A DNA stretch of 64,000 nucleotides from an uncultured Acidobacteriota bacterium (GCA_963836075.1 CAWIIB010000001.1:2016001-2080000), one strand, 5' to 3'; positions 2,197-55,886 are shown, counted from the stretch's first letter. Numbers and translations are program-made. The notes: generated from the sequence alone by a model not told the origin.

Positions 2197-2218
2197 GCGC
2201 TGACCCGGCAATTGGACG

Positions 2219-2253
2219 AATAAAAAGCCCGGGCGGAGCCCGGGCTTTTTATT
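2219..2253. terminator. Intrinsic terminator, bidirectional shape
   Basis: Perfect 16-bp inverted repeat AATAAAAAGCCCGGGC-GGA-GCCCGGGCTTTTTATT, 22 nt after the corrected stop at 2196. Confidence 0.9.
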
Positions 2254-2502
2254 TACCTCCACCTCTCTACGGTTCCAAAGCCCTCAACAGACCGTCCTCC
2301 CTACGGATAACGACTTCCGGAACAGAATCCCATCTTCTTCAAGGACGAGCTGGGCGATGATGCCGGTCGGCGAAATGCCGAGTCGGGTCATTCCCACACA
2401 CCAGTAGCATCTTGCGAGCCATCAGAGTTATATTCAGGGTAACTGATCCGATCCCGGTGGCTCGCAGCCCCATAGTCAGGCATGGCCGCCAGAGGGAATT
2501 TC

Positions 2503-15625: not shown

Positions 15626-15687
15626 GAAATCAGGCAACAAACGTCCCCGGCGGCCGCACCGGCCCGCTGAGTTCAGACAGGCGATTG

Positions 15688-17806: not shown

Positions 17807-17843
17807 AACATCAATTGAAGTGTAAGAATTAATGGCGGCTTCC

Positions 17844-27225: not shown

Positions 27226-27301
27226 GGCGATAACCTCTTCAGGAATATGACTGCATATAACGGACAGGTTCACCCCGCCCAGTTTGACCAAGGCTCGAGC
27301 A

Positions 27302-28312
27302 CTATTGCGGGCCGGCACCGGCCACCTTCACCCCGTGGCTGAAATGATCCGGATTGTAGGCCAGGAAATCGATGCCCTGCACCGCGGTGAGCGCATCGCC
27401 ATCGAAATTGAATGCCCGGACCCACGGGAGATGATCCTCCCCCGGTCCGGGACCGGTGAGGATCTCGTGGATCCCGTCACCGTCCACGTCTCCGCACGCC
27501 ACGTTCACACCCCACTGGGAGTACAACGCATAGGCAAAGAAACTCACCCCGCCCACCGCTTCCACCGGCCCCGAGCCGTCCCAGTTCCAGGCACGAACGT
27601 GGGGGCCGAACACGGTGCCCGGACCGGCACCGGTGACGATCTCGCTCATTCCGTCGCCGTCGATGTCACCACAGGCCACGTTGACCCCGAACTGGTTGGT
27701 GCCGTAAGCCAGGAAGGAGATTTCCGGGATGGCCTGGGCCACCCCTGTTCCGTCCCAGTTCCAGCCCCGGACGTGGGGGCCGTAGATCGCTCCTGGTCCG
27801 GCGCCGGTGATGATCTCATCGTAGCCGTCGCCGTCAAGGTCGCCGCAGGCCACGTTGACCCCCCACTGGGACGCGCCATAGGCGAAATAGGAGATCTCGG
27901 GAATGGCACTGACCTCGCCGGCCCCGTCCCAGTTCCAGCCGCGCACGTGGGGGCCGAACACGGCACCCGGACCGGCGCCGGTGATGATCTCGGGATAGCT
28001 GTCGCCGTCGATGTCGCCACAGGCCACGTTGACGCCGAACTTCAGGGTGCCGTAAGCGATGAAGGAAATCTCCGGGATCGGCGCACCGTTGCCCTGGAAC
28101 CCGCGAACCTGTGGCCCGTAAATCTCCCCGGGGCCCGGGCCGGTGAGCACGTCGAGATTCTGGTCCAGGTCGAGGTCGCCGCAGGCCACATTCACCCCGT
28201 ACTTGTCCGCCCCGTAGGCCGTCCACTCGGCCAGCGGTGTGGACACATTCCTCGGGTCAAAGACCCGGGCCAACGGCGGGTTGTTCTCGCCGCGGCCCGG
28301 ACCGGTGACGAT
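27302..28312 (-). repeat. C-terminal module A, copy 3
   Basis: IVTGPGRGENNPPLAR...HGVKVAG. Confidence 0.9.
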
Positions 28313-29464
28313 GTATCCCGGGTCCAGGGTGGAGTTCAGGAACACCGCCACATAGCCGTTGTTGCCGCTGGGTATGGCGATGTCGAGATCACCATCCCCG
28401 TCCAGGTCGGCCATGGAGATGGCAGTACCGCCATCATCGTAAAGATAGGTGAGTGGGGATTCAAAGGTCAGGTCCCCCCGGCCCAGAAGTACGGTGAGCA
28501 GGTCCGAGTAATCACTGACAAGGGCCAGGTCGACGTGGCCGTCGAGGTTCAGATCCCCGGCAGCCACCTTCAAGGGGTAGGTGTACAAACTGACCATTCC
28601 GGCATTTCCGAAAACACCGCCGCCCATGTTCTCCAGAATGGTCACCCCGTCCCACTGGCAGGCCACGGCGAGATCCTCGTCGCCATCCTCGTCCAGGTCG
28701 GCGAGCGCGGCCCCCTGGGGTTCTCCGAACACCGCGTAGTCGGCCCGGTGGGTGTAGTTCCCGTCACTGTATTTGAGGATGGAAACACTGTTGTCGTCCC
28801 TGTTGGACACGGCGAAATCCATGATCCCGTTGCCGGTGAGATCGGCAAGGGTGATGAAAGTGGCATCGCGGCCCACGGCAAAGTTACCGTCGGTGGTGAA
28901 GGTACCGTCACCCACACCGTTGAGCAGCCGCACTTCGTCGTCGTAGGGCCAGTTTACCACCAGGTCGAGGTCGTCATCGCCGTCGGCCCCCACACTCCCC
29001 AGGGCCATGGCCGTGGGGTTATCGGGCGAGGTATCGGTCCAGTGTTCGGTGAACTCCCCCAGTCCGTCGCCCAGCAGCACGCGCAGTTCCGGCGCATAGC
29101 GGCTGATGGTGACGGCATCCTGGTGCCCGTCGTCGTCGACATCGCCCATGGCAAGATCGGTAATATAGTCCCCGGCATGGAAACTGCCGCCGGTGGAGAA
29201 GGTGCCGTCGCCATTGCCGTGATACACCGTTATATTCTCGTAGTAGTCGGCGGTCACCAGGTCCGGACGGCCGTCCTCGTCCACGTCGGCGACCTCGATA
29301 TCCACGGGATTGCCGGTGACCGGCAGCAGGATCACCGCTTCGAAGAGATCGCCTGCCGTCCCGCCCGCCATCTGGGCCGGAAGGAGTGCCGGGAACAGCA
29401 TGAGCAGCACAATTGCCAGGACCGGCAACAGAAACGGCCCTCTTCTCCAAAGAGATGAAATCAT
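27302..29464 (-). CDS. Secreted FG-GAP/VCBS repeat protein with C-terminal module A
   Basis: AAGGGG RBS; signal peptide; colinear with 25063-27225 (SRY.PEL, PTAMAL, GNYTHR.DY.V shared). Confidence 0.88.
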   Translation of the reverse strand: MISSLWRRGPFLLPVLAIVLLMLFPALLPAQMAGGTAGDLFEAVILLPVTGNPVDIEVADVDEDGRPDLVTADYYENITVYHGNGDGTFSTGGSFHAGDYITDLAMGDVDDDGHQDAVTISRYAPELRVLLGDGLGEFTEHWTDTSPDNPTAMALGSVGADGDDDLDLVVNWPYDDEVRLLNGVGDGTFTTDGNFAVGRDATFITLADLTGNGIMDFAVSNRDDNSVSILKYSDGNYTHRADYAVFGEPQGAALADLDEDGDEDLAVACQWDGVTILENMGGGVFGNAGMVSLYTYPLKVAAGDLNLDGHVDLALVSDYSDLLTVLLGRGDLTFESPLTYLYDDGGTAISMADLDGDGDLDIAIPSGNNGYVAVFLNSTLDPGYIVTGPGRGENNPPLARVFDPRNVSTPLAEWTAYGADKYGVNVACGDLDLDQNLDVLTGPGPGEIYGPQVRGFQGNGAPIPEISFIAYGTLKFGVNVACGDIDGDSYPEIITGAGPGAVFGPHVRGWNWDGAGEVSAIPEISYFAYGASQWGVNVACGDLDGDGYDEIITGAGPGAIYGPHVRGWNWDGTGVAQAIPEISFLAYGTNQFGVNVACGDIDGDGMSEIVTGAGPGTVFGPHVRAWNWDGSGPVEAVGGVSFFAYALYSQWGVNVACGDVDGDGIHEILTGPGPGEDHLPWVRAFNFDGDALTAVQGIDFLAYNPDHFSHGVKVAGAGPQ

Positions 29465-29606
29465 GATGAAGTCCCCTTGAGGTATCCCGGTGGATGGCTG
29501 GTTCAGAACCGCCACGCAATCCTCGGGCAATTCCAAAAATATGATGATTCGGTTTGAGTAAGGCGTTTTAAAACTGGGGCCACCATTCACAGGTGAATTA
29601 CTAAAA

Positions 29607-29635
29607 AGTATACCTATCAGGAAAACAGTTGTCAA
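29607..29635 (-). promoter_or_regulatory. Near-consensus sigma70 promoter for the tandem propeller genes
   Basis: TTGACA-17 nt-TATACT; palindrome ATTCAC-AG-GTGAAT (29585-29598) just downstream. Confidence 0.75.
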
Positions 29636-29700
29636 ACTTACCTTTACCGGAACAATTTCATTATTCCAATCCGTATGAACTGTCATAACGAACACCTAGT

Positions 29701-29780: not shown

Positions 29781-32036
29781 ATGCCCGATCCACCGACCAG
29801 TCCGAAAAGCCTGCCCAGACGACTGGCGCCCTGGATTCTACTGCTCCTCATCATCGCCCTGGGTCTGGCCCTCCGGCTGGAAGACCTGCGGGACTGGCGG
29901 CAGGAGCCCCAGCGCACCATGTACCAGGGTGAGCCGCTGATCCGCACCATGGACGGCTACTACTACCTCCACCTGGCCCGGGGTCTGCTGGAAGGCACCT
30001 GGCAGGGAGGCTCCGCCGAACCCTGGCGCTGTCTGCAGGAGGACTCGGAGGCGCCGGCATTCCCGCCCCTGCTCTCTCTGGTCACCGCCGCCATTTCCCG
30101 CGGAACCGGCATTCCGCTGATCCGGGTGGCCGTCTTCCTCCCGCCGCTGCTGGGCATCCTGCTGGTGCTGCCGGTCTTCTTTCTCGGCCGGCAGTTCGGG
30201 GGGACCATCTGCGGTCTGCTCTCCGCACTGTTCGCCGGCACCAGCGGGTACTACCTTTACCGCAGCAGCCTCGGTTTTTTCGACACCGACATCCTCAATG
30301 TCACCTTCACCATGACGGTCAGCCTCTTCTTCATCCACTTCGCGCTCAAACGGAGCCGCTGGCGCTACCTCCACCTGGCCCTGGCCCTGGCGACCAGCCT
30401 GCTCTTTTTCCTCTGGTGGCGGCCCTACGCGGTCACCGCCCTGGTGCTCACCATCTTTGCCACGGCCATGGTCTTCTTTTTCCGCAGCGCAACAGGGAAT
30501 GAACGGAAGATCGCGGCTCTGCTCCTGGCCCTGCTGGTCCTTGTCCCGCTGGCCGGTCTCCTCTTCGGCGGCCAGGGCCTGGCCCCGGTGGGCCGGCTCT
30601 TCCAGACCGGCCTGGCCCGGATCATCAACTACGCCGTGTCCAGCGAGGCCTGGAAGGACCAGGATGTGGTCCTGGCCATCAGCGAGCTGCAGCGGCCGTC
30701 GCTGCGGCTGGTGGTGCAGTCGGTGGCCGGCGGGCCCCTGCTCTTTACCGCCGGCCTGGCCGGAATCCTGCTCCTGCTGGTCCGCCGGCCGCGGCAGGCG
30801 CTGCTGCTGGCGGCCCCGCTGGCCCTGGGCTTTATCTCCTTTCTCGCCGGGCGGCGCTTCCTGATCTTCCTCAGCCCCTTTTTCGCTCTCGGCGCGGGGT
30901 TCCTGGCCGCACAACTGCACCGGCTGCTCCGCGGCCGCCACTGGTGGTACGGGGCGCTGCTGCTGGCGGGGTTCACCGCACTGAGCCTGCCCTCCATCCG
31001 CCAGGAACTGGACCGGACCTACTGGCCTTCAATCCACCCCTCGGTGGCCGGGGGGCTGGAGCACCTGGCCGTGCTCCCCCGGGACACGGTGGTCTGGAGC
31101 TGGTGGGACAACGGCCTCGCCCTGGCCTACTGGAGCCGCCAGTGCACCGTTGCCGACAACATGCAGATCGGCAACGTCTTCTACCAGGCCTGGCCCCTGG
31201 CCTCCGCTTCGCCGGCCGTGGCCTCCGGCTTCATGCATTTCTACGTCAAACGCGGGGATCAGGGGATGGACCGGCTGCTGGAACAGTTCGGGGGCTGGGA
31301 CCAGGTCTTCCAGTTCATCGATGAGATCTACCGCCTGGGCCCGGAGGCGTCGCTGCTCCACCTGCGAAATCTGCGGCTCCATCCGCTGGTGGGCTGGTAC
31401 AAATACATGTTCCCCCGTGACTCCCGGCCGCTCTACCTCTACCTCGATGGCGAGATGATGAAGACGGCCTACTGGTGGTACTGGTACGGCACCTGGAACT
31501 ATGCCCACCGCGAAGGGATCCACCCCACCGTGCGAATGTTCGCCGGGCTGCGCTCCGCAAAAGATTCAATCAAGGCCCCCGGCCTGACCATCGACCGTGA
31601 AAAGGGGATCCTCGTGGCCGATGATATGCAGACCACCCTCTCCAGGGTGCTGGACATCAGCCAGAAGATGATGGTGGCCCGGGACTATCCGGACGGGTCG
31701 GACCTGCAGTTCGATTTCTTCCACCCGGCCCGCTTCGGCCTGCTGCACAGCAGCGAATTCGGAGACTCCCTCTTCAACCAGCTGTTCATCCGCCAGACCT
31801 ATGACCCGGCCAGTTTCAAGCCGGTGGTCCTCGCCTCGCCGGTGCTCCAGGTCTGGGAAGCCGTGCGCGACGAGCAGGCCATCGAACAGACCATCACCAG
31901 GCTGCACGCCGGACTGGTCCCGGTGGACGGGGACCCGGTGATGTGGCTCGATCCGGAGAGCGCCACGGGGGAGGAGACGGGGGACGAGCCGGAACCCTTA
32001 CCGCAGCCGGTTCAGGGGCGCGGACCGGGTGAATAG
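29781..32036 (+). CDS. STT3/PglB/AglB-family oligosaccharyltransferase (GT-C)
   Basis: Many TM helices; TMDGYYY, YRSSLGFFDTD (DxD), ISE (TIxE-like), RRF and WSWWDNG (WWDxG) motifs in PglB order. Confidence 0.85.
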   Translation: MPDPPTSPKSLPRRLAPWILLLLIIALGLALRLEDLRDWRQEPQRTMYQGEPLIRTMDGYYYLHLARGLLEGTWQGGSAEPWRCLQEDSEAPAFPPLLSLVTAAISRGTGIPLIRVAVFLPPLLGILLVLPVFFLGRQFGGTICGLLSALFAGTSGYYLYRSSLGFFDTDILNVTFTMTVSLFFIHFALKRSRWRYLHLALALATSLLFFLWWRPYAVTALVLTIFATAMVFFFRSATGNERKIAALLLALLVLVPLAGLLFGGQGLAPVGRLFQTGLARIINYAVSSEAWKDQDVVLAISELQRPSLRLVVQSVAGGPLLFTAGLAGILLLLVRRPRQALLLAAPLALGFISFLAGRRFLIFLSPFFALGAGFLAAQLHRLLRGRHWWYGALLLAGFTALSLPSIRQELDRTYWPSIHPSVAGGLEHLAVLPRDTVVWSWWDNGLALAYWSRQCTVADNMQIGNVFYQAWPLASASPAVASGFMHFYVKRGDQGMDRLLEQFGGWDQVFQFIDEIYRLGPEASLLHLRNLRLHPLVGWYKYMFPRDSRPLYLYLDGEMMKTAYWWYWYGTWNYAHREGIHPTVRMFAGLRSAKDSIKAPGLTIDREKGILVADDMQTTLSRVLDISQKMMVARDYPDGSDLQFDFFHPARFGLLHSSEFGDSLFNQLFIRQTYDPASFKPVVLASPVLQVWEAVRDEQAIEQTITRLHAGLVPVDGDPVMWLDPESATGEETGDEPEPLPQPVQGRGPGE

Positions 32037-33195: not shown

Positions 33196-33258
33196 CCTGC
33201 ATCTCCATTGAATACTCTGGTATTATGGCATTTGTTCAGACCATGGAGAAAGGAAGGA

Positions 33259-36211
33259 ATGAGGATGCCACGCCCAGCACTCCGCGCTCCCCTGTTTTTC
33301 ACCCTGCTGATCCTGCTCGCCTCATCCGCGGTGGCCGGCCCGCCATCGGCCATACACACCTCGTACGGGTCGTTCGATCCGCTGGCCGGCCCGCCGCCCG
33401 ACCCTCTGCAGTTTAAAGCTGCCCCGGGCAATACCATCCGCCTGCTCCAGGTGACCGGCAGACTCAGCTCGGACGAGATCGAGGCGCTGAAGACCGCCGG
33501 CGTCAGGCTGCTGGGCTATGTCCCCCACAACACCTACGTGGCCGACATCCCGGCCTCCCTGGCCCAACGAATCAGCGCCCTGCCCACGGTGCGCTGGATC
33601 GGGGAACTCCCTCCCGGCTGGCGTATCGAATCCGGGCTGCTGCACCAGCCGCCGGAGGAGCTGGTGGTGCGCATCGATTATTTCCCGGACGAGGACAGCG
33701 ACCGGAACCGCCAGGCCGTGCGCGATACGGTGTCCGCCTGGTCCGGCGGACTGATCGAGGAATACCTATCCATCCCGGTGCTCCGCGCCCGGGTGCCGGC
33801 GGCGGCGCTGGTCGATCTGGCCCGGCTGCCCGGGGTCCGCTGGATCGAGCAGTGGCACCCGCCGCAACCGGCGATGGACAATGGCCGCTATCAGCTGGGG
33901 GCCCGGCCCCTGCACGTCCACCAGGCCTGGGACGGCAGCGGCATCGTCGGCGAGATCCGTGACAACGGCATCGACCTGACCCACCCCGACTTCGGCAACC
34001 TGATCGGCACCCACGGCGACATCATTATGGATCTCCACGGTACCGGCACCTTCGGCATCGTCTTTGCCGACGGCGCTGCCGGGTCCTACCAGAGCCTCAG
34101 GGCCCGGGGGATGATGACCGGCGGCAGCGGCGTCTTCTGCGACTGGCGGGTCGGCACGGCCGACTCGGTACAAGAACCTGGCCGAGGAGTGGGACGGCCG
34201 GTTCCAGAGCAACAGCTTTGTCGGCGGCGTGCTCAACGGCCGCTACACCGGGATGTCCCGGGAAAACGACCTGGTCACCAACGCCCACGACATCCTGTTG
34301 CTCTATGCCGGGGGGAACAACGGCATCGAACCGTACAAGATCTCCCAGCATGCCTGCGCGAAAAACGTCATCGGCGTGGGGGCCATCTTCCACTATGACA
34401 ACGACGACCCCGGCGATGACGACTGGCATATCGCCGGCGGCGCCCCGAGCCAGGGGCCGGCGGAAGACGGCCGGGTCAAGCCCGACCTGGTGGGCTACTA
34501 CGACAGCATCTTCACCACCGACCCGGTGGGCCCGGCCGGCGGCACGGCCAGCGATTACACCACCATGTTCGGCGGCACCAGCGGGGCCTGCCCCATGGTG
34601 GCCGGCGCCGCCGGGCTGGTCTACCAGATGCTGGAAGGGGGGCACCTGGGCGCCGTGCCCCCGGGTGAACGGGGACACACGGCCACGGTGAAGGCGATCC
34701 TCATCGCCCACACCAACCAGTACCCGCTGGAGCGGGCCACACGCTATCAGCAGGGCTGGGGGATACCTGACGTAAGCCGGGTCCACGCAGCCGGCCGCAA
34801 CATGCTGGTGGTCAACGGCGGCCACCCCCTGTCCACCGGCGAAAGCCGCAGCTTCCAGGTCCGGCGGTATGCCGCCGGTGAGCCGCTGCGCATCAGCCTG
34901 GTCTGGGCCGACCGGGAGGCCGAGATGATGGCCAACCCCACCCTGGTCAACGATCTTGACCTGAGGGTCACCTCCCCCAGCGGCACGGTGTTCCACGGGA
35001 ATCGCGGCTTGCACGGCAACCTCTGGTCCCTGCCGGACGGTGATTTTGACCGCCTGAACAACGTGGAAAACGTCTTTATCGAGGAGCCCGAAGCCGGTCT
35101 GTACACCATCGAGGTGACGGCCTGGAACGTGCCGCTGGACAACCACCCCGACGCCGGCATCAACCAGGACTTCTCGCTCTGCGCCACCATGACGGAAGGG
35201 GCCCCGTCGCCGTTCATCGTCACCGGCCCCGGGCCATACAGTTTCAACGACCCGCTGGTCCGCACCTGGGACCCGCTGGCCCCCTCCTGTCTCGTGGAGT
35301 GGAAGGCCTACGGCCTGGACCGCTACGGGGTGAACGTGGCCGCCGGCGACACCGACGGCGACGGCCATGACGAGATTATCACCGGCGCCGGTCCGGGGAC
35401 CGTCTTCGGCCCCCATGTGCGGGGATTCAGCCGCTCAGGGTGGCCGCTGGACCGGATCAATTTCCTGGCCTACGGCACGAACAAGTACGGGGTGAATGTC
35501 GCCGCGGGAGACCTGGACGGCAACGGAATCGACGAGATCATCACCGGCGCCGGTCCGGGAGCGGTGTTCGGCCCCCACGTGCGGGGCTGGGCCGTGGGCG
35601 CGACGGCCACCACCCCCCTCGCCGGGATCAGCTACTTCGCCTACGGCACACCGAAATACGGGGCCAACGTCAGCTGCGGCGACATCGACGGAGACGGCTT
35701 TGACGAGATCGTCACCGGTGCCGGTCCGGGTGCGGTGTATGGCGCCCACGTGCGCGGCTGGAACTGCGACGGCACGACGGGTGCCGCAGCCATGCCGGGG
35801 GTGAGCTTCTTCGCCTACGGCACACCCCAGTGGGGAGTGAAGGTGGCCTGCGGCGATATCGACGGCGACGGCCTGGACGAGATGATCACCGGCCCCGGCC
35901 CCGGCCTGGAGTTCGGGCCGCACCTCCGCGCGTTCGCCTTTGACGGAAGTGGTGTGGCGCCCGTCCCGGACATCAGCCAGTTTGTTTACGACGGATATCT
36001 CTACGGGCTTACCGTGGGGGCCGCGGATGTGGACGGCGACAGCTTCGCCGAAATCCTCACCATGCCCGGCCCCGATCCCGAGGCACTGCCCTGGCTCAGG
36101 GTCTGGGATGCCGACGGCGGTTCGCTACAGCTGAAACCGGAGTTCGATGACAACGCCTACGATGAACTGAACATCTCTCACGGTGGGACCGTGGCCGGAG
36201 GTGTTTTTTGA
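33259..36211 (+). CDS. Secreted S8 subtilase (Kp43-like layout) with C-terminal module A; +1 frameshift near 34167
   Basis: Signal peptide; YVPHNTY prodomain; RDNG, HGTGT, AKNVI.VGA, DGRVKPD, GTSGACP, LVNDLDL, NNVENV. ORFs 33208-34398 and 34229-36211 join via ...ADS/YKNLAEEWDGRFQSNS. Confidence 0.85.
35216..36211 (+). repeat. C-terminal module A, copy 4
   Basis: IVTGPGPYSFNDPLVR...HGGTVAGG. Confidence 0.9.
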
Positions 36212-42938: not shown

Positions 42939-45700
42939 CTATCTCGGCGCAAAATCAGCGGCGGTAAATCGAGGTTTGGCCCCCGGGGCCACCGGTCCCG
43001 CCAGGGGCCGTTCCACGGCCTGCCTCCCGCGGCCGTCCAGCGGGAAACGTCCGCCGGCGAGGTTGGCCCCCAGGTCCATCCCGGGGATCGCCTCGAAGGC
43101 ATACTGCAGCTCGCCCTGTCCATCGGCGTTGATGGTGATCGACACCGCAACGGCCCCGATGCCCGGCTGGGGGCCTGGAGCGACGAGGATGTCGTCGGTG
43201 CCGTCGCCGTCCATGTCGGCGGATCCCACCCTGGCCCCGAACCCGGTGCCAAAGACAAAGAAACTGATCTCGTCGATGGGCGTCACCGCGGATCCGTCAT
43301 AGTTGAAACCGCGGATGTGACCGGGGAAGGTTGCGCTGGGGCCGGGCGCGGTGATGATCTCGTCCATCCCGTCGGCATCAATGTCGCCGCAGGTCACGTT
43401 CACTCCCCATCGCGGGGTGCCGTAGGCAAAGAAGCTCACCGCGGGGATCGGCACCGCCGGACCGCCGTCCACGTTCCACCCGCGGACGTGGGGACCGAAC
43501 ACCGGGCCCGGTCCGGCCCCGGTGACGATCTCGTCGAAGCCGTCACCATCCAGATCACCGGCGGCCACGTTCACGCCATACTTGAGCGTACCGTAGGCAA
43601 AATAGGAAACACCGGGCACCGGCACCACCGGGCCGGAGCCGTCGTAATCAAAGGCGCGGACGTGCGGCCCGAACACCGCCCCCGGTCCGGCGCCGGTGAG
43701 GATCTCGTCGAACCCGTCACCGTCGATGTCGCCGGCGCCGACATTGACGCCCCACTTCGGTGTTCCGTAGGCCAGGAAACTCAGGCCGGGAAGCGGCGTA
43801 CCGTCCACCTCGAAACCGCGGACGTGGGGGCCGAACACCGGCCCCGGCCCGGCGCCGGTGAGGATCTCGTCATAGCTGTCGCCATCCAGGTCACCGGCGG
43901 CCACGTTGGCCCCGTAGCGGGGAACGCCATACGGCGTGATCTCGGGCCCCAGGGGGGCTCCGTAGGCGTCAAAGGCCCGCGCCGCGGGCCGGTTGTCCGG
44001 ACCCGGCCCCGGAGCCACCACCACCCCGTTTTCGCTCTGGATCTTGCAAAGCACCTTCAGACCGGGGTCGAGGAAGATCCTCGTCGGCTCGGCAGGCACC
44101 ATGATGATGAAGGTTTCCGACTGCTGGTCCACCCGGACCGTGGTCTCCACGTCGCCGGCCGGGGTCCTGATCAGCAGGTCCAGCGGCATGTCGAAGAGCG
44201 GGGTCACCGCGTCCACATCCTGGATCTGCTCGATGGTGACATAGAGGTTGCCGGCGGAACTGGTCCAGTTGACCCGGTATTCGGGGTAGCCGGCCATATA
44301 AACCCACTGGTCGAAGAACCAGTCCCAATCCTCGCCGGTAACGTCTTCGATCACCTGCTGGAAGTCGGCGGTGGTGGCCGAGTCGTAACGGTAGCGGTCG
44401 GCCCATTCGCGGTAGATGTCGACAAAGGTCTCGTAGCCCACCTCGCTGCGAATCATGTGCAGAATCCAGGCGCCCTTGCGGTAGACCGTCCCCCCCACAT
44501 GTAGTCCGGGTCATAGATCGGGAAGCGCCCCTCGGAATACTCCTCGGACTGGAAGTAGTCCCAGCGGTTGTCGATCATCTGGAAACGGAAAGCCTCGTCA
44601 CCATAATAGTGCTCGGTGAACAGGGCGTCGAAATAGGTCGCGGCGCCCTCGTTGAGCCAGATGTCCATCCAGGTGCCGCAGGTCACCAGGTCGCCCCACC
44701 ACTGGTGGGCCAGTTCGTGGGCCACCACACTCTCATAGCTCCGTAGGCCATCCACCAGGTTCGGGCTCCAGGTGGTCATGGTCTCGTGTTCCATCGCCCC
44801 GCTGAACGGCGCCACCGCGTGGCCGTAGGTGTCGAACGGGTAAGGCTCGAACACGGTTTCGAAGAATTCGAACATCGCCGGCATGTTGGCCCAGTCGTAT
44901 GCCGCGTCGTCATAGTGGCTGGGGTAGACAAAGGACTTGATCGGGATGCCGCTTGGCGTGGTCTGCTCCAGAATCGCGTAGTCCGAGACGGCCAGTGATA
45001 TCAGGTAAGTAGGGACGGGATAGTCGAGGAAATAGCTGGTGGTACTGGTGCCGTCGCCGTTGTCCACAATCCCCTGAAGGTCGCCATTGGAGGCCACCAG
45101 CAGATCCGAGGGAGCGGTGATGTGACCACGGTACCAGTCGGCCTTGTCGCTGGGGATGTCCCGGCAGGGGAACCAGCCCCGGGCATCCTCCGGCTGAGAG
45201 TGAGTGTACACCGTGCCGCCATTGCTGCTGGTGAATCTCAACCCACTTGTCGGCATACCCTCATAGGAGACGGAAAACAGTCGTGATTCGCCGAGGCTCA
45301 TCGGTGACGACGGCGTGACCCGCAGTTCCTCGTTCTCATGGGTCCAGCTCACTGCCGTGCCGCCGTCTTCCACCACCCCGGTGACCGTGAGTCCGATCAA
45401 GTCGAGGGTGAACTGGGTGAGACCGGCCTCGGTGCTCTCCATTCCCACATCACACTGCGCATCGATGGTCCGGGTGTCAGGATCGAGAGCGATGGTCAGG
45501 GTATAGGAGATCACATCGTAGTTGTCGGTGGACCGGCTCTTCCAGTCCGCTGCCGCCCTGGCAAAAGCCGCCTTGCCCTGCTGGCAGGCCAGCGAACCAT
45601 CGACGCGCCGGGGAAGATCCCGCTGCTGCGCCATCAGGGGCCCGGCGGCCAGAAACCCGATAAGGAAGACGAAGAAGACCTTGCTGAGTTTGCGGTACAT
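42939..45700 (-). CDS. Secreted M1 family aminopeptidase with C-terminal module A; -1 frameshift in a G7 run (44490-44496)
   Basis: GAGGAG RBS; signal peptide; GAMEH, HELAHQWWG..WLNEG, then TVYRKGA..LHM in the next frame. Confidence 0.9.
43045..44025 (-). repeat. C-terminal module A, copy 5
   Basis: VVAPGPGPDNRPAAR...LGANLAGG, followed by a ~35-aa tail. Confidence 0.88.
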
Positions 45701-45943
45701 GACCACTCCTCCCCGAGATGCGGAAACCCCACTCCCGATGGTGGCGCGAATTGACGCCCCGCTTTTTTGTTCCTGACCTGCCCCCGGCCGGATGCCGCGG
45801 AGCGCATACCTGTATAAACGAAAATAGGGCGTCACAGTTCCCCATCTGAATGGTGGGATTATCCCCCGCTTTCGCGAGGGGATCGGGATCGGCCGGATGG
45901 AGTTGCCGGCGGCCGCCGAACCGGGTCCGGCGGCCGGCAGGAT

Positions 45944-47110: not shown

Positions 47111-48103
47111 TCAGAAGCTGCCGCCGGCCACGTTTCCGCCGTGACCCAGCCCCAGATCTTCAAACGCATCGAAATCCATGGCGCCGGCGGAAGCCGATCC
47201 GCCATCCACGTTCCAGACCCGAAGCCGGGCCGGCTGGTCCGGGTCGGGGCCAGGCATGGTGAGGATCTCGTCGAAGCCATCGGCATCGAGGTCACCGCAG
47301 GAGATGTTGACCCCGTAAAGCGCACCGGGATAGGCAAAAAAGTTCACCCCGGGAATCGCTGCCGCGGCACCACCGTCAACGTCCCAGCCACGGACGTGGG
47401 CGCCGAAGATCTGACCGGGACCGGAGCCGGTGACGATCTCATCCATCCCGTCGCCATCGATGTCGCCGCAGGTGACGTTGACACCGTATTTGAGGGTGCC
47501 GTAGGCGAAGTAGCTCACCCCGGGGATCGACGCCGCGGCGCCGCCGTCCACGTTCCAGCCGCGGACGTGGGGACCGAACACCGCACCGGGGCCGGCACCG
47601 GTGATGATCTCGTCCGTCCCGTCACCGTCGATATCCCCGCACGAGACGTTGACACCGTATTTGAGGGTGCCGTAAGCAAAGTAGCTCACACCGGACACCG
47701 GCGAGACCGACCCGCCGTCACTGTTCCAGCCGCGCACGTGGGGACCGAAAACCGCACCGGGGCCCGCGCCGGTGACGATCTCGTCCATCCCGTCACCGTC
47801 GATGTCCCCGCAGGTGACATTGACCCCGAACTTGTTTGTGCCGTAAGCGAGAAAATTGACCGCCGAAACCGGGGAGCCGGCGGTGGAAAAGGCACGGACG
47901 TGGGGACCGAAAACCGCGCCAGGGCCCGCGCCGGTGACCAGTTCGGCCCGGCCGCTGCCGTCCAGGTCGCCGGCGGCCAGGTTCACACCCCAGGCAGGTG
48001 TGCCGTAAGCCAGCCACTGTGACAGGGGCTCCCCCGGCGCCTGGGCGCTGTACATCCGCACCAGCGGCGGGTTGGTGGAAGCATGACCGGGCCCGGTGGC
48101 CAC
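47111..48103 (-). repeat. C-terminal module A, copy 6
   Basis: VATGPGHASTNPPLVR...HGGNVAGG. Confidence 0.9.
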
Positions 48104-49531
48104 CATGGTCACATCCAGCGGCACCAGGGCGATGTCGCGGACAGTGGCCTCCTCCCAGATCACCGGGACGTTGTCCAGCGTCTGGGGCTCATACCCTTCT
48201 GCGCTGTACGTCACGGTGTATTCCCCGGTGTAGAGTGGCCGGACGTAGTTGCCATGGTCCGGGTCGCAGTGCACCGGAGTGGGCATGTCGATGCCCGAAA
48301 CGGTAATTTCAGCGGCCACCGGCCCGCCGGTGATCGCGTCGGTCACCGTGCCGGTAAGTCCCTTGCCGGCCAGGTCGATGTGGTAGAGCATCGACTCCCG
48401 GTTGTCGTCCCAGTAGTCGTCGATCTGGGAAGCCGGCGGCGATGAGGGGTCGGACAGTTCGATGATCACGTCGTAGTCGGCATACCAGTAGTAGTTCCAG
48501 TCCTGCATGCTGCCGTGGGTCATATACCACTCGACGCCCCGGGTCACACCGTCCTCGAAATAGGAACTGCTGTACATCGGCTCGTTGCGCGAGGCGTAGC
48601 CGAGGGCCATGTGGTAGAAGACCGTATCGTCCGGGCAGTAGTCCCAGGTGGAATCCCAGGGGTAGTTCACCACCGTGGCCCCGGTGTGGAAGTTGGCCGA
48701 GAGCACGAAGGTCTGCTCCAGCTGCCAGAGCATCACCAGCTGGGTCTCGGTGCCCCGGCCGTCGGGTTCGTTCACCGGGTCTTCGATGAAATCAGGGAAG
48801 TCACGGTTCAGGTCCCGGCCCTGGGCGTTGTAGCGCGAACCCGAGACATAGCCGTCGGGGTTCATCAGCGGCATGATAAAGATTTCGCGGTTGTCCACCA
48901 TGGCGGTGATGGCCGGGTCGGAGCCGTAGTTCGCCAGCAAATGCTCGATGAGGTTGAGCAGCAGCGGCACGCAGAGGGTCTCGTTCCCGTGCATCGCGCC
49001 GATATACTTGAATTCCGGCTCGGCTTCCTCGGTGCCGGCATTGTCGCTGATCTTCATCACCCAGAGGTCGCGGCCGTTGGTGGACTGGCCGATGCTGAAC
49101 AGGTCGCAGAGACCGGGATAGGAGGTTTCCATGTCCTGCAGCCAGGTCTCCATCTCACTGAAGGTGGGGTAACTGGTCCATTCTCGCCCGGGCTGGGGGA
49201 TGTAGCCCTGTTGCCCGAGGGTCTCCAGATACTCCCGGCTGTTGTCCACCATGGGGTAGACCGTGAAACCCCGGGCCAGCAGTTCCAGCCGTTCCCGGTC
49301 CACGAGATACGCTTCGGCATACTGCCCGGGACGGACCGTGGTGATATCGAGATCCATGGCCACCAGTGCACCAACATCGTTCTCGCCGCTCAACACGATG
49401 CGGAACAGGTCCGGATTTCCGGCAAACATCGCGGAGTCGACCCCGGCCGGCACGATGGCGGAAACCGTGGCAAAGAGGCAGATGAACAATACAATGGTAA
49501 ACCGGCTCAACGATTTCTGGTGCTGGCTCAA
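47111..49531 (-). CDS. Secreted M14 zinc carboxypeptidase (N/E-type, with regulatory-like domain) and C-terminal module A
   Basis: HGNE, NPDG, RYN....DLNR.FP, SANFH.G, GSMQDW.Y, IELS; G.V.DA.TG.PV.A domain; TTG start after GGGAG. Confidence 0.9.
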   Translation of the reverse strand: MSQHQKSLSRFTIVLFICLFATVSAIVPAGVDSAMFAGNPDLFRIVLSGENDVGALVAMDLDITTVRPGQYAEAYLVDRERLELLARGFTVYPMVDNSREYLETLGQQGYIPQPGREWTSYPTFSEMETWLQDMETSYPGLCDLFSIGQSTNGRDLWVMKISDNAGTEEAEPEFKYIGAMHGNETLCVPLLLNLIEHLLANYGSDPAITAMVDNREIFIMPLMNPDGYVSGSRYNAQGRDLNRDFPDFIEDPVNEPDGRGTETQLVMLWQLEQTFVLSANFHTGATVVNYPWDSTWDYCPDDTVFYHMALGYASRNEPMYSSSYFEDGVTRGVEWYMTHGSMQDWNYYWYADYDVIIELSDPSSPPASQIDDYWDDNRESMLYHIDLAGKGLTGTVTDAITGGPVAAEITVSGIDMPTPVHCDPDHGNYVRPLYTGEYTVTYSAEGYEPQTLDNVPVIWEEATVRDIALVPLDVTMVATGPGHASTNPPLVRMYSAQAPGEPLSQWLAYGTPAWGVNLAAGDLDGSGRAELVTGAGPGAVFGPHVRAFSTAGSPVSAVNFLAYGTNKFGVNVTCGDIDGDGMDEIVTGAGPGAVFGPHVRGWNSDGGSVSPVSGVSYFAYGTLKYGVNVSCGDIDGDGTDEIITGAGPGAVFGPHVRGWNVDGGAAASIPGVSYFAYGTLKYGVNVTCGDIDGDGMDEIVTGSGPGQIFGAHVRGWDVDGGAAAAIPGVNFFAYPGALYGVNISCGDLDADGFDEILTMPGPDPDQPARLRVWNVDGGSASAGAMDFDAFEDLGLGHGGNVAGGSF

Positions 49532-51441: not shown

Positions 51442-52431
51442 TCAATTCTCGAGGAAGGCCACCTTGGCGCCGTATCCCACCTCTCCCGCCGGGTAGGCGA
51501 GGAAATCGATATCTTCCATGGCGGTCAGCGTCATGCCGTCGTAATTCCAGCCGCGGACCCGGGCGTCGAAATCCGGCCCCGGGCCGGGTGCGGTGATGAG
51601 CTCGTCGATGCCGTCACCGTCCAGGTCACCGGCGCCCACTTCCACGCCGTACTCGGTGGTGTCATAGGCGAAAAAGCTGATGCCCTGGATCGGCACCACC
51701 GACCCGCCGTCGATGTTCCAGCCCCGCACGTGGGGGCCGAAGACCACACCCGGCCCGGCGCCGGTGATGATCTCGTCCATCCCGTCACCGTCCAGGTCGC
51801 CGCAGGCGACATTGACGCCCCATTTCAACGTACTGTAAGCAAAATAGCTCACTCCGGCCAGCGGCCCCGCTGTCCCGCCGTCCACATTCCAGCCCCGCAC
51901 GTGGGGGCCGAAAACCGCGCCCGGCCCGGCACCGGTGACGATCTCGTCCATCCCGTCGCCGTCCAGGTCGCCGCAAGCGACATTTACACCGTATTTCAGC
52001 GTGCCGTAAGCGAAATAGCTCACCCCGGGCACCGCGGCCACCGCGCCGCTGTCATAACTGAACCCCCGCACGTGAGGGCCGAACACCGCGCCGGGACCGG
52101 CGCCGGTGACGAACTCGTCGCGGCCGTCACCGTCCAGGTCGCCGGCGGTGACGTTGACGCCGTATTTGTTGGTACCGTACGCGAGGAAGGACGCCCCGGT
52201 CACCGCTGTGCCGGTGCTGCTGAAGGCCCGCACCTGGGGGCCAAAGACCGCCCCCGGTCCGGGGCCGGTGATGATCTCGTCCCCCGGGTCGTCATCGATG
52301 CGGCCGGCCGCGACGTTGACACCGTATTTGTCAGCGCCATAGGCGACAAAGGAGACGACCATGCCGTTGCCGGGGACGAACCCGCGCACCTCGGGCGGGT
52401 TGTCCGGGCCGGGACCGGGGCCGGTGAGGAC
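51442..52431 (-). repeat. C-terminal module A, copy 7
   Basis: VLTGPGPGPDNPPEVR...YGAKVAF. Confidence 0.9.
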
Positions 52432-53856
52432 CAGGCCGTCATAGTCACCCGTGCCGTTGTTGATGAAGAGGTAGTTGCCCACACTGCTGTCCCAGTTGGA
52501 GACCGCTATTTCAAGGTCGAGCGAGTACTCATAAAGGATCTCCACCGGCAGTCCATCCGGGTCATCCGGCAGGCTGACCCAGCCGTTCTCCAAGTCTGCG
52601 CAGTAATCGGTAACCTGCGTGTCATAGACCATTACCCAGAGGATCTTTTCCACCGGTCGGTGGGGAAGCTGGTAGAGGGTCTTCCCCGGCGGCGGGGCCC
52701 CTTCGTAAAATGTGTTCTGACGGATCCCGTCCCGATCGGTGTCGCCGAAACAGATGCGCTCCACCACGCTGCCGGTGGAGGAGGCCCAGACCGCTGATGA
52801 GCTGAGCGTACCGCCCTGGTTCAGGTGCACCCGCACCGGCCCCCACCACTGGCCGGAAAAGAGGTCGAGGTCGCCGTCGTTGTCCACGTCGCTGAAGGCC
52901 ACCGAGGAGCCGTAGCCCCCCTCGTCGGACGTCCAGGCCGGCATCGTGCCCAGGGTGCCGGATCCGTTGTTGACATAGAGTTTGAACCGGCCGCTGCCGC
53001 CCAGCTGGTTGTTGTCGGCCACCGCCAGGTCGGGCCAGCCGTCGCCGGTGACATCGCCCCAGGCCAGGGTGTTGGCGTCCTGCTCGGCGGTGTCGGCCGA
53101 GCTCCAGCCGGCGGTGGCGCTCATCACGCCGTTGTTGTTGTAGTAGACCCGGTTGGGATCGCCGGAGTTGCAGAAGGCCAGGTCGAGGTCGCCGTCCCGG
53201 TCCACATCGGCCCAGGAAAGGTCATAGCTGGAATCCAGCTCGGACGACTGCCAGACTGGCGTGGTCTCCAGCATTCCCCCCACGTTGCGGAAGATGCGGT
53301 TGGTGCGTGGGCGGTTATTGTATGACTCGCCGCAGGCCACTGCCAGGTCGAGGTCGCCGTCGTTGTCCAGATCGCCAAAAGCGCAGCGGAAGGTGTAGAC
53401 ATCCTCGTCCGCCGCCCATGACGGAGTCGATTCCAGGGTTCCGCTGCCGTCGTTCAGATAGAGCTTGATCTTGCCGTCCTGGCTGAACCCGGCGGCGCCG
53501 ATGTAGACCGATGCCGCCACGTCCGGCCAGCCGTCGCCGTTGACATCGCCCACCGAGAGGTGACCGTGATAGTCGATGTCGCCGGACTCCCAATCGGGGT
53601 TGCCGGGAAAGGTTCCGTCCCCCTGGTTGTAGTAGACCGCCAGGTGCTGGCGGTAGATATCGTTGCCGTTGGCCACCACCAGGTCGGGCCAGCCATCGAG
53701 GTCCAGGTCGGCCAGCATGGCGCCGGTGGAAACCTCGGTGTCCGACGATTCCCAGTTCGGTGTGGCGTCGTAAGGCAGGCTGCCGGCGAATAGGGCCGGC
53801 GCAAAGGCCAGACAACAGCCGAGTAAAAGGATCCGAACAGAACGATTTCTGATCAT
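51442..53856 (-). CDS. Secreted FG-GAP/VCBS propeller protein with C-terminal module A
   Basis: AGGAGG RBS; signal peptide; D.D.DG..DL repeats with P.W.S spacers; paralog of 53946-55769 up to NYLF.NNG. Confidence 0.9.
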   Translation of the reverse strand: MIRNRSVRILLLGCCLAFAPALFAGSLPYDATPNWESSDTEVSTGAMLADLDLDGWPDLVVANGNDIYRQHLAVYYNQGDGTFPGNPDWESGDIDYHGHLSVGDVNGDGWPDVAASVYIGAAGFSQDGKIKLYLNDGSGTLESTPSWAADEDVYTFRCAFGDLDNDGDLDLAVACGESYNNRPRTNRIFRNVGGMLETTPVWQSSELDSSYDLSWADVDRDGDLDLAFCNSGDPNRVYYNNNGVMSATAGWSSADTAEQDANTLAWGDVTGDGWPDLAVADNNQLGGSGRFKLYVNNGSGTLGTMPAWTSDEGGYGSSVAFSDVDNDGDLDLFSGQWWGPVRVHLNQGGTLSSSAVWASSTGSVVERICFGDTDRDGIRQNTFYEGAPPPGKTLYQLPHRPVEKILWVMVYDTQVTDYCADLENGWVSLPDDPDGLPVEILYEYSLDLEIAVSNWDSSVGNYLFINNGTGDYDGLVLTGPGPGPDNPPEVRGFVPGNGMVVSFVAYGADKYGVNVAAGRIDDDPGDEIITGPGPGAVFGPQVRAFSSTGTAVTGASFLAYGTNKYGVNVTAGDLDGDGRDEFVTGAGPGAVFGPHVRGFSYDSGAVAAVPGVSYFAYGTLKYGVNVACGDLDGDGMDEIVTGAGPGAVFGPHVRGWNVDGGTAGPLAGVSYFAYSTLKWGVNVACGDLDGDGMDEIITGAGPGVVFGPHVRGWNIDGGSVVPIQGISFFAYDTTEYGVEVGAGDLDGDGIDELITAPGPGPDFDARVRGWNYDGMTLTAMEDIDFLAYPAGEVGYGAKVAFLEN

Positions 53857-53945
53857 CTCATCCTCCTGGCACAGGGCCGGACAAACCCGCCGGGCGGGCA
53901 ATGACATGCGGGCAAGGCTTTGAAAATATATCACACCGGTTCAGG

Positions 53946-54312
53946 TCAGGGTGCCGCGGCCGTGAGGGCGGCGCTGGCCGTGGCCGTGCCGCCGGCCGCC
54001 GGGTAGGGCGGCTGGTTGTACGGGGCGGGGGTCACGTCTTCAGCCGCCAGGGTGAAGACATTGAGCCCGATCAGCGAGCCGGCCGCCGGGATAGTCTGGT
54101 TCCAGGAGCTGGTGAACCGGTCGCCCGGTGAGACGTTGGTGTACCCGGCCCGCCAGGAGTTGACGGAACTGCCGTTGGCCAGGGCGATGTTGATCCGCCC
54201 GGCGAGACGGCGGACCTGGCCGGGGTAGGTGTTGGCCAGGGAAACACTGAAGTTGGCCACGAAGGGCACCTGACCGCTGTCGGGGGTCACGGTAAACCCG
54301 GCGGCCAGGGTG
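53946..54312 (-). repeat. C-terminal module B, copy 3 (intact reading frame)
   Basis: PDSGQVPF..RRLAGRINI..NGS..WRAGYTN..SWNQTIP..EDVTPAPYNQPPY..TATA..AP*. Confidence 0.9.
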
Positions 54313-55769
54313 GAGGTGGACGCGGAACCGTTGTTGGCGAAGAGGTAGTTGCCGTCGTCGCCGTCCCAGTTGCTCACCGCCATCTCCTGGTCAAAGGACC
54401 AGGTGAAGCCCACGGCCACGGTGGCGCCGGCCGGATCGGCGGCCAGGCTGACCCAGCCGTTCTCCAGATCGAAACAGTAGGCCCCGCTGACCAGCGGACT
54501 GCCGCCAACCGCCACCGAATCGATGGATTCCAGGGGCCGACGGGGCAGAGTGTAGAGGGTCTGTCCGCCGGTCCCCTCGAATACGGCCGTGGCCTGCCGC
54601 AGGTCGTCCCGGTCGGTGTCGGCGAAACAGATCCGTTCCACCACGCTGCTGGTGGAGGCGGTCCAGACCGCCGACGAGCTGAGGGTGCCGCCCTGGTTCT
54701 CGTGCACCCGCACCGGGCCCCACCACTGCCCGGAAAAGAGGTCGAGGTCACCATCATCGTCAGCGTCGCTGAAGACCACCGATGACCCGTAGCCATTCTC
54801 ACTGGAAGTCCAGGCCGGAATGGTGCCCAGGGTGCCGGAGCCATTGTTCACATACAGCTTGAACCGGCCGCTGCCCCCCAGCTGGTTGTTGTCGGCCACC
54901 GCCAGGTCCGGCCAACCGTCGCCGGTGACGTCGGCCCAGGCCAGGGTGTTGGCATCCAGGGACAGATCGGTGGAGCTCCAGCCGGCGCTGGTCTCCAGCA
55001 GACCGCCGTTGTTGTAGTAGACCCGGTTGGGGTCGCCGGAGTTGCAAAAGGCGAGGTCGAGGTCGCCGTCCCGGTCCACGTCGGCCCAGGAAACGTCGTA
55101 ACTGGAGTCCAGTTCGTCGGAGAGCCAGGCCGGCGTCGACTCCAGCATCCCGCCGCTGTTGCGGAACACCCGGTTGTATCGCGGCCGGTTGTAATACGAC
55201 TCGCCGCAGGCCACCGCCAGGTCCAGGTCGCCATCGTTGTCCATGTCGCCGAAAGCGCAGCGGAAAGAGTAGACATCCTGGCCGGCCGTCCAGGCGGGGA
55301 TCGCCCCCAGGGTGCCGGCCCCGTTGTTGAGATAGAGCTTGACCGTGCCGTCCTGGCTGAACCCGGCGGCGCCGATGTAGACCGACACCGCCACATCGGG
55401 CCAGCCGTCGCCGTTGACGTCGCCCACCGAGAGATGTCCGTGGTAATCGATGTCGGTGGACTGCCAGTCGGGGTTGCCGGGGAAGGTGCCGTTACCCTGG
55501 TTGTAGTAGACCGCCAGCCGCTGGCGTTGGATGTCGTTGCCGTTGGCCACCACCAGGTCGGGCCAGCCGTCGCGGTCGATGTCGGCCAGTGCCGCGCCGG
55601 TGGAGACCCGGGTGTCCGAAGAGACCCAGGCCGGAGAGGTCCCATAGGGAACCTGCGCTGAAACCGGAGCCGCCGCCAGCAGGAGCAGGCAACCGGCGAC
55701 GAGCAGGTATGAAATGAGCGCCCGGGAACAGGGACAGTCCCGTCCGGGACGGATGGCGATGCTGATCAT
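53946..55769 (-). CDS. Secreted FG-GAP/VCBS propeller protein with C-terminal module B
   Basis: GGAGGT RBS; signal peptide; same body as 51442-53856 but ends in module B. Confidence 0.9.
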   Translation of the reverse strand: MISIAIRPGRDCPCSRALISYLLVAGCLLLLAAAPVSAQVPYGTSPAWVSSDTRVSTGAALADIDRDGWPDLVVANGNDIQRQRLAVYYNQGNGTFPGNPDWQSTDIDYHGHLSVGDVNGDGWPDVAVSVYIGAAGFSQDGTVKLYLNNGAGTLGAIPAWTAGQDVYSFRCAFGDMDNDGDLDLAVACGESYYNRPRYNRVFRNSGGMLESTPAWLSDELDSSYDVSWADVDRDGDLDLAFCNSGDPNRVYYNNGGLLETSAGWSSTDLSLDANTLAWADVTGDGWPDLAVADNNQLGGSGRFKLYVNNGSGTLGTIPAWTSSENGYGSSVVFSDADDDGDLDLFSGQWWGPVRVHENQGGTLSSSAVWTASTSSVVERICFADTDRDDLRQATAVFEGTGGQTLYTLPRRPLESIDSVAVGGSPLVSGAYCFDLENGWVSLAADPAGATVAVGFTWSFDQEMAVSNWDGDDGNYLFANNGSASTSTLAAGFTVTPDSGQVPFVANFSVSLANTYPGQVRRLAGRINIALANGSSVNSWRAGYTNVSPGDRFTSSWNQTIPAAGSLIGLNVFTLAAEDVTPAPYNQPPYPAAGGTATASAALTAAAP

Positions 55770-55886
55770 GGAAACCTCCGATTGGCTGGCCGCCGGCACC
55801 GAGGAAAAGCTCCGACCGACGAACGTCTGCGGGCAAGGCTGGAGTTATTTTAACACGTTTCTTCACCGCCGGGCCCGGAGGGTCTG

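Follow-up and report, generated by a model that had tools for sequence, protein, structure and literature searches.

Two interchangeable C-terminal modules on putatively Sec-exported proteins of an uncultured Acidobacteriota bacterium

The exchange of C-terminal sorting or anchoring domains on homologous protein bodies is already known. In the T9SS (type IX secretion system), two alternative tail classes, including a second, type B class, serve one slot, and the "choice-of-anchor" concept of NCBIfam covers homologous bodies that carry different C-terminal anchors. The T9SS signal is described as a C-terminal beta-sandwich in portions of PMC4804311 and PMC11285876. According to a portion of PMC13274773, the UmbA proteins have one body with swapped C-terminal lectin domains, which belong to 41 families and 10 folds; one of these proteins, UmbA4, ends in a lectin, a six-bladed beta-propeller whose ligand is teichuronic acid, a cell-surface glycopolymer (PMC13274773, in part). 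Here a gene pair is described from an uncultured Acidobacteriota bacterium, in which two adjacent genes of the minus strand share one body, an FG-GAP beta-propeller, and end in either of two unrelated modules, named A and B. The pair lies in a stretch of 64,000 nucleotides, hereafter the window (G000:C1:2016001-2080000), within a genome of 6.23 Mb in 10 contigs. The supposition of the initial annotation of the window, that A and B can replace each other in a single slot, is strongly supported by their genome-wide occurrence, and it seems somewhat probable that they are alternative, lineage-specific sorting or surface-anchoring labels for Sec-exported proteins. The parts of the pair are as follows (window positions):

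53946-55769, minus strand: B-type gene (P0002), encoding a signal peptide, the FG-GAP propeller body and module B
55656-55769, minus strand: probable Sec signal peptide (M11 to A48, VSA/QV) of the B-type protein, recognised by eye and by a hydrophobic-region heuristic
54327-55661, minus strand: shared body of the B-type protein, aa 47-491, an FG-GAP/VCBS propeller followed by a less conserved end of ~90 aa
53949-54326, minus strand: module B, 126 aa
51442-53856, minus strand: A-type gene (P0001), encoding a signal peptide, the FG-GAP propeller body and module A
53785-53856, minus strand: probable Sec signal peptide (M27 to A50, LFA/GS) of the A-type protein, recognised by eye and by the heuristic
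52453-53787, minus strand: shared body of the A-type protein, aa 50-494
51445-52452, minus strand: module A, 336 aa

The B-type protein has 607 aa when read from the ATG at 55769, the end coordinate of the initial annotation, and database relatives of this length exist; its longest open reading frame (ORF) starts at a GTG at 55799 and encodes 617 aa (53946-55799, minus strand). The A-type protein has 804 aa from the ATG at 53856, the form found as a protein database entry (P0083), and 830 aa in its longest ORF, from a GTG at 53934 (51442-53934, minus strand). The two longest ORFs are separated by 11 nt. In a BLASTP comparison 354 of 503 positions are identical (70%, E = 0.0), and the bodies alone, in a passenger-only comparison, are 75.3% identical over 449 aa. 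The three identical stretches quoted in the initial annotation are present in both proteins and the tails are unrelated, so that two real, adjacent genes with one body and alternative C-terminal modules can be taken as confirmed. Both bodies match PF13517 above the Pfam gathering score (179.4 bits in P0001, 148.8 bits in P0002), and the sole NCBIfam match at E<=1 is XAC2610_fam, with 29.4 bits and 39.8 bits, respectively. The likeness ends with the sequence NYLF[IA]NNG, at residue 494 of P0001 and 491 of P0002, 5-6 residues ahead of the modules, which is where an abrupt divergence had been reported. The endpoint stands, but the fall towards it is in two steps: a codon-wise profile gives ~85% identity in the propeller (aa ~55-400), ~50% in the final ~90 aa of the body, and nothing beyond. 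Pairwise alignment places the starts of the tails at nt 52452 for module A and nt 54326 for module B, close to the breakpoints of about 52445 and 54325 that had been estimated at first.

Profiles of the two modules were used to search (hmmsearch) the 14,942 ORFs of at least 120 aa in the genome, and the resulting numbers are counts of ORFs rather than of curated genes. Module B was matched in 200 ORFs and module A in 162; after score thresholds were applied, 193 ORFs are B-tailed and 135 A-tailed, ~330 together. Both modules are terminal. A median of 0 residues follows the B domain and 188 of the 200 matches lie within 10 aa of the C-terminus; for module A the median is 5 residues and 122 of 159 matches lie within the same distance, most of the non-terminal ones being weak cross-hits to FG-GAP repeats or split genes. 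No ORF carries a convincing A together with a B, as in the 8 ORFs that match both profiles the A match is a weak one of the generic FG-GAP kind (domain scores of up to 27) beside a full B. The passengers are highly varied, with overlap between the two classes, and comprise S8, C25, M14, M1 and M28 peptidases, GDSL lipases, pyrroloquinoline quinone (PQQ)-dehydrogenase-like proteins, BNR sialidase, arylsulfotransferase, FGE-sulfatase, GH5, beta-helix and FG-GAP proteins; both labels were found behind S8, C25 and M14 peptidases and behind PQQ-dehydrogenase-like, BNR sialidase and beta-helix passengers, among others. The copies of each module are ~50-66% identical despite their unrelated bodies, and this conservation suggests one common partner for each label rather than many substrates. 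With a crude hydrophobic-region heuristic, used in place of a trained predictor, proteins whose passengers reach 200 aa were scored for a signal-peptide-like N-terminus, which was recognised in 87 of 111 with tail A and 131 of 165 with tail B; a looser test on all members of the two classes was passed by 89 of 135 A-tailed and 136 of 193 B-tailed ORFs, compared with 918 among 2840 background ORFs that are 400 aa or longer. No difference was seen between the N-terminal signals of A and B proteins, lipoboxes (1 and 3) and RR motifs (4 and 5) being rare in both.

The exchange of A and B on one body is not peculiar to the window. Among the 36 passenger families with two or more members, 14 hold both tail types, and a genome-wide search for further A/B paralog pairs returned 16 pairs in which the passengers reach 50% identity across 70% or more of their length. 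The best of them are found among PAF-AH-like hydrolases (passenger identity 76.6%), the FG-GAP proteins of the window (75.3%), beta-helix proteins (71.6%), DUF362 proteins (69.5%) and S8 peptidases encoded elsewhere in the genome (63%), as annotated with Pfam. In most of the 8 best pairs the breakpoint lies within about 10 residues of the tail domain. The B-tailed member of the S8 pair carries 122 additional residues, which include a PPC domain, and in the DUF362 pair there are 42. An A/B split had also been claimed for the two S8 proteases of the window; one indeed ends in B and the other in A, but they are only 30% identical over 155 aa. At 50% identity or more, the nearest passenger paralog has the same tail type in 55 cases and the other type in 16. 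In the largest family (60 members, 32 A and 28 B), two FastTree runs gave 12 and 16 tail changes, compared with 15-26 when the labels were shuffled; since the tree of these repeat proteins is too unstable for an exact figure, the number of exchanges is best given as "many", and the nearest-paralog counts are sturdier. Of the A/B pairs that are neighbours, only that of the window has closely similar passengers; in the remaining three neighbouring A/B paralog pairs the identity is 30-38%. No distinctive composition or common motif, such as a linker or recombination signal, was seen 5' of the tails.

Two side observations concern the ends of the passengers. Several beta-helix proteins have a motif T-(T/S)-R-(T/S)-D ... 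D-x-G-Y-H-Y-P directly ahead of both A and B tails, and this motif has the look of a conserved terminus belonging to a single passenger family. Moreover, a third, rare C-terminal module of ~64 aa with paired Ca-loop-like repeats was found in 9 ORFs, at the C-terminus in 8 (G000 C1:1131813-1133099, C1:1133145-1134452, C1:2156597-2158114, C9:2777252-2779144 and five more); the bodies of 4 of them are 41-45% identical to A-type passengers. By eye, its paired D-x-D-G-x-G-x-(V/I)-D-G repeats resemble dockerin, although the module has no name in Pfam or NCBIfam. For one of its proteins (L119) no dockerin model was listed by Pfam at E<=1e-5 or by NCBIfam at E<=0.01.

Module A was modelled with an alignment of 20 in-genome paralogs as a 24-strand, six-bladed beta-propeller of the FG-GAP type (predicted local distance difference test score, pLDDT, 91.4; predicted template modelling score, pTM, 0.92). 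Each blade carries a DxDGDGxDE loop and a GPHVRGW motif; GD(L/I)DGDGxDE is conserved in the consensus, with several invariant D and G positions. Only generic FG-GAP models match it, and for module A alone Pfam gives PF01839 at 49.3 bits (cut-off 22.1) and PF13517 at 45.9 bits (cut-off 26.9). The top Foldseek match in the PDB is UmbA4 (9oee_A, E 2.6e-9, 20% identity, TMq 0.62); next come six-bladed proteins of artificial design, Kelch domains and the lectin PVL. The predicted fold thus suggests a lectin-type anchor to a glycan. Across the 135 different proteins of the genome that carry it, module A is ~53-66% identical.

The model of module B is an eight-strand, immunoglobulin (Ig)-like beta-sandwich (pLDDT 93.8). 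No family was found for it in Pfam at E<=10 or NCBIfam at E<=1, the sole Pfam listing being CBM_2 at 14.8 bits, below the cut-off of 24. Its alignment has an invariant non-strand loop, D-V-T-P-x-P-x-N-Q-P-P (D97, T99, P100, P102, N104, Q105, P106 and P107), and an invariant Pro at its end; within the genome, 156 of 178 copies finish with this residue. Two Cys, one close to the first strand and one in the last, occur together in 121 of these 178 copies, singly in 31 and not at all in 26; the copy in the window and its two orthologs have neither. The closest folds are the fibronectin type III (FnIII) domain of RbmA (Z 11.8) and the barrel of a transglutaminase (Z 11.4), with 72 chains at Z >= 8, among them the PKD domain of an archaeal M14 peptidase (4xed, Z 9.7) and CARDB (3idu, Z 9.6). 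A protein atlas search with module B gave scores of about 0.87-0.88, below the 0.9 lead level, with a weak hint of CARDB. The T9SS C-terminal domain is absent among the matches listed for module B (Foldseek, VIA), which is not evidence of different folds.

The pair has a history longer than that of a single genome. The same tandem, B gene then A gene, is kept in two other assemblies, L001 (617 and 831 aa) and L002 (627 and 835 aa; an Acidobacteriota metagenome-assembled genome, MAG, by its NCBI label), and in a tree of the bodies from the three genomes the three A copies form one clade (support 91/93) and the three B copies another (98/97). Therefore the duplication and the tail exchange are older than the split of these species, and the pair is, on the sequence evidence, an old duplication of which both copies have been kept, and not a recent recombinant or swap. 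The direction of the swap cannot be read from the tree, since the position on it of a third body paralog with tail A (C1:1472446-1474917, 64.6% identity) is ambiguous. The modules themselves appear to be confined to one lineage. Of 31 genomes searched for module B, only the 3 of its own genus have it; the 28 without it come from 25 additional families within the phylum. A search of 121 genomes of that phylum for module A, at E<=1e-60, likewise returned 3, all belonging to the genus. Among 1.84 billion representative proteins, 501 match the B profile at E<=1e-3, and in the best 150 of these 501 module B ends within 5 aa of the C-terminus in 145, while a strong module A is present in none of the 150. 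For module A, 8000 candidates were scored, and 3361 of them are relatives at E<=1e-3. Some relatives (metagenome representatives P0203-P0210) carry two tandem C-terminal copies of B, an arrangement of which none was noted in the genome of the window.

In other phyla the slot behind the same body is filled differently. Body homologues with 46-52% identity end in other tails: TIGR04183, the T9SS type A sorting domain, occupies residues 483-573 of 576 in an Ignavibacteriaceae MAG (32.8 bits) and residues 505-585 of 588 in an Eisenbacteria MAG (26.7 bits; cut-off 23 in both cases), a Phycisphaerae MAG has a tail that is dockerin-like by eye, and a homologue in a Thermoanaerobaculia MAG is tail-less. 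Two Planctomycetota MAGs (L005 4492-6123 and L009 5231-7057) share an unrelated end domain with no match to the B profile, ~113 aa long with Pro as last residue in L009 and cut by the contig end in L005; perhaps this is a further tail of a single lineage for this position. The place that is taken by a known sorting signal in those phyla with a T9SS tail is thus filled by A and B in a genus that lacks the T9SS. In the three genomes of the genus (G000, G001, G002) TIGR04183 has 0 matches, compared with at least 150 and 89 in two T9SS-bearing control genomes, and SprA (TIGR04189) was matched in none of the three, compared with 784 and 385 bits in the two controls; nor do modules A and B match any T9SS tail in NCBIfam (E<=1) or Pfam (E<=10). 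Membership of A and B in the T9SS tail family was therefore rejected, and the functional analogy was kept.

As stated above, A and B are read here as sorting or anchoring labels. Support comes from their strict terminal position, from the finding that a protein bears either label but not both, from the way in which each label is conserved on bodies that have nothing else in common, and from the T9SS analogy. In the mechanism proposed, the two genes of the window would go back to an old tandem duplication of a gene for an FG-GAP propeller protein exported by Sec, with the C-terminal domain exchanged in one copy. The C-terminal slot would act as an address label, each label being read by one common partner that sorts or tethers the protein outside the cytoplasmic membrane, with export proceeding beyond the periplasm; the partner of module A would most likely be a glycan of the cell's own envelope or matrix and that of module B some receptor or export or attachment machine, and paralogs with the same body would be deployed at two different places. 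The initial annotation had offered, as examples, a cell-bound and a released destination or two partners in a complex. In most copies of module B a predicted disulfide staple, the pair of Cys, bridges the first and last strands, which, like the signal-like N-termini, speaks for export. A bolder version, possible but doubtful, has A and B marking the cargo of an undescribed export or surface-attachment system in a deep, uncultured, T9SS-less lineage (Acidobacteriota according to NCBI); B would then be the functional counterpart of the T9SS C-terminal signal, its proline-rich loop and Pro being read by the machine, A a lectin anchor on the cell's own glycan coat, and tail swaps would give one activity two addresses.

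Several points weigh against the labels. No receptor, translocon or processing enzyme was found in a genus that is without TIGR04183 and SprA, the controls being positive. Module A could instead target substrates or prey, as propeller lectins such as UmbA4 bind foreign cells. The Ig/FnIII/CARDB-type fold of module B is generic, with many matches at Z 8-11, and carries little functional information, and among the best 150 of the 501 B representatives 9 have tandem B-B and 5 a non-terminal B, which is more like a binding or spacer domain. Finally, frame changes split many of the ORFs that were counted, and the signal-peptide heuristic misses ~20% of the proteins.

Some of these points are shared by an explanation that appears unlikely, namely that A and B are substrate-targeting modules of the carbohydrate-binding module (CBM) kind, a lectin propeller and an Ig-like binder that bring secreted enzymes onto different insoluble substrates or onto the surfaces of other microbes, and not labels for the envelope of the producer. 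It would account for the best structural match of module A, which is a lectin for a foreign cell-wall polymer, for the resemblance of module B to CARDB, FnIII and accessory domains of glycosidases, for the tandem B-B forms and for the degradative enzymes among many passengers. It accounts less well for the same two modules, with conserved loops, being shared by peptidases, lipases, sulfatase-type enzymes, dehydrogenases and non-enzymatic propellers, for which a single substrate is hard to imagine; modules of this kind, moreover, usually vary in position and copy number, whereas here the extreme C-terminus is the rule, and in other phyla the same slot is filled by the T9SS sorting domain. That last fact would also suit a cleavable signal for outer-membrane export, with B (possibly also A) as the equivalent of the T9SS C-terminal domain for an undescribed translocon, lost from the mature protein. 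Module B, an Ig-like sandwich that covers ~120 aa at the C-terminus, its last strand conserved and its final residue invariant, has the general form of the T9SS signal, likewise a C-terminal beta-sandwich (PMC4804311 and PMC11285876, in part), TIGR04183 stands in the same slot of homologous bodies, and the number of cargo-like proteins is of T9SS scale. Yet there is no similarity to T9SS tails by hidden Markov model (HMM) and no SprA in the genus, tandem B-B forms exist, a propeller of 336 aa is large for a signal, and no candidate machine was found, the C25 peptidase of the window reaching only 50.6 bits against the PorU cut-off of 420, all of which makes a cleaved signal decidedly improbable.

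Two further explanations are more remote. The second suggestion of the initial annotation, that A and B bind each other and so join A-tailed and B-tailed proteins in heteromeric complexes, could draw on the invariant proline-rich, non-strand loop of B and on the Kelch-like six-bladed fold of A, a fold that is often peptide-binding, as well as on 15 cases in which an A gene and a B gene are neighbours with under 400 bp between them. However, neighbours of the same type are together commoner (30 B/B and 15 A/A pairs), and each module occurs once per protein on more than 100 proteins, with no scaffold bearing repeats, unlike cohesin and dockerin, and mutual binding is judged very improbable; a prediction of the A-B complex from the module alignments scored 0.00 in both runs, a result that says nothing on binding either way. 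That the pair arose in assembly, by the chimeric joining of two repeats, can be given almost no credence. The genome, with its hundreds of copies of the two modules and its many genes split by frame changes, is the kind of background from which such a join might arise, but the B-then-A tandem recurs in two other assemblies, the bodies are only ~80% identical at the nucleotide level (~70% of third codon positions alike in the propeller), the longest exact match between the two copies is 40 nt, and both frames are open from start to stop.

The remainder of the window contains further tail-bearing genes and three other genes of note:

47111-49531, minus strand: M14 carboxypeptidase with module A
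42939-45835, minus strand: M1 peptidase with module A, in two ORFs (44453-45835 and 42939-44498)
33208-36211, plus strand: S8 peptidase with module A, a probable split gene, the S8 domain being truncated in ORF 34229-36211 with an overlapping upstream ORF 33208-34398
25063-29695, minus strand: two tandem FG-GAP proteins, each A-tailed (25063-27318 and 27302-29695), passengers 51.5% identical
19829-20851, plus strand: ORF consisting of a module A fragment or copy
15685-17832, plus strand: beta-helix protein with module B, with a reading-frame change inside B
3-2360, plus strand: S8 peptidase with module B, with a reading-frame change inside B; the gene begins ahead of the window
11808-15539, minus strand: C25 (gingipain-family) peptidase, 1243 aa, with no A or B tail
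29781-32036, plus strand: STT3/PglB-like oligosaccharyltransferase, 751 aa (PF02516 96.8 bits; NCBIfam PglB 86.8 bits, cut-off 1300)
20898-22331, plus strand: beta-CASP ribonuclease-like protein, best NCBIfam match archaeal-type aCPSF1 (221 bits, cut-off 580)

Four of the tail genes, at 3-2360 (plus), 15685-17832 (plus), 33208-36211 (plus) and 42939-45835 (minus), are thus frame-split, two of the breaks lying inside module B, and elsewhere in the genome many ORFs finish in Arg-rich, out-of-frame tails; the splits are either assembly indel errors or many pseudogenes. The C25 peptidase was considered as a PorU-type sortase and rejected, its match being local and weak; other C25 peptidases of the genome are A- or B-tailed cargo. 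The STT3/PglB-like gene lies between A-tailed genes, a possible sign that proteins are glycosylated. The idea that this neighbour N-glycosylates the tails was rejected as well, the N-x-S/T sites of this copy of module B not being conserved in its two orthologs.

What is new here is therefore not the swapping of C-terminal domains as such. It is the two modules, one of which has no family in Pfam or NCBIfam, the scale of ~330 ORFs, and the restriction to one T9SS-less genus; none of the papers searched gives a description of these two tail domains. If the tails are address labels, they would mark out which proteins are exported in an uncultured group with many peptidases and further enzymes of degradation, and would indicate a sorting or anchoring partner in bacteria without the T9SS. 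The natural A/B pairs, present in at least five unrelated families (FG-GAP propeller, hydrolase, beta-helix, DUF362 and S8), are ready controls for tail function, and the C-terminal "anchor slot" of one conserved body can be seen to hold different devices in different phyla.

Among the known systems, the T9SS tails (TIGR04183/Por_Secre_tail) offer a close functional parallel. They too stand at the extreme C-terminus of diverse Sec-exported proteins as a beta-sandwich, a description that the predicted structure of module B also answers, they too are carried by a hundred or more proteins per genome, and in T9SS-bearing relatives they occupy the very slot of A and B; by contrast, there is no HMM similarity between the two sets, neither the tails nor SprA were found in the three genomes of the genus, and module B has eight strands, a proline-rich invariant loop and a Cys pair, while module A is a propeller of 336 aa. 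The choice-of-anchor domains share the principle of a common body followed by one of several ends, A or B in this genus and, in other phyla, a T9SS tail, a dockerin-like tail or the ~113-aa domain behind an FG-GAP body, but this body matches no named choice-of-anchor model in NCBIfam at E<=1 and A and B are not PEP-CTERM, LPXTG or T9SS tails. The Ig-like accessory domains (RbmA FnIII, CARDB PF07705, PKD) may share the fold class predicted for module B, CARDB and PKD being two matches among the 72 chains at Z >= 8; module B differs from CARDB and PKD in giving no profile match, in being strictly terminal and in having its own D-V-T-P-x-P-x-N-Q-P-P loop and terminal Pro. The UmbA proteins of the Streptomyces umbrella toxin particles (UmbA4, PDB 9oee) provide the structure closest to module A, likewise C-terminal and six-bladed with loops of the Ca-binding type, and the same exchange of C-terminal lectin domains on a constant body (PMC13274773, in part). 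Their lectins, as far as that portion of the paper describes them, are diversified for different target species, whereas the copies of module A are conserved within one genome, on passengers that are not part of a toxin particle, and its binding of a sugar is a prediction.

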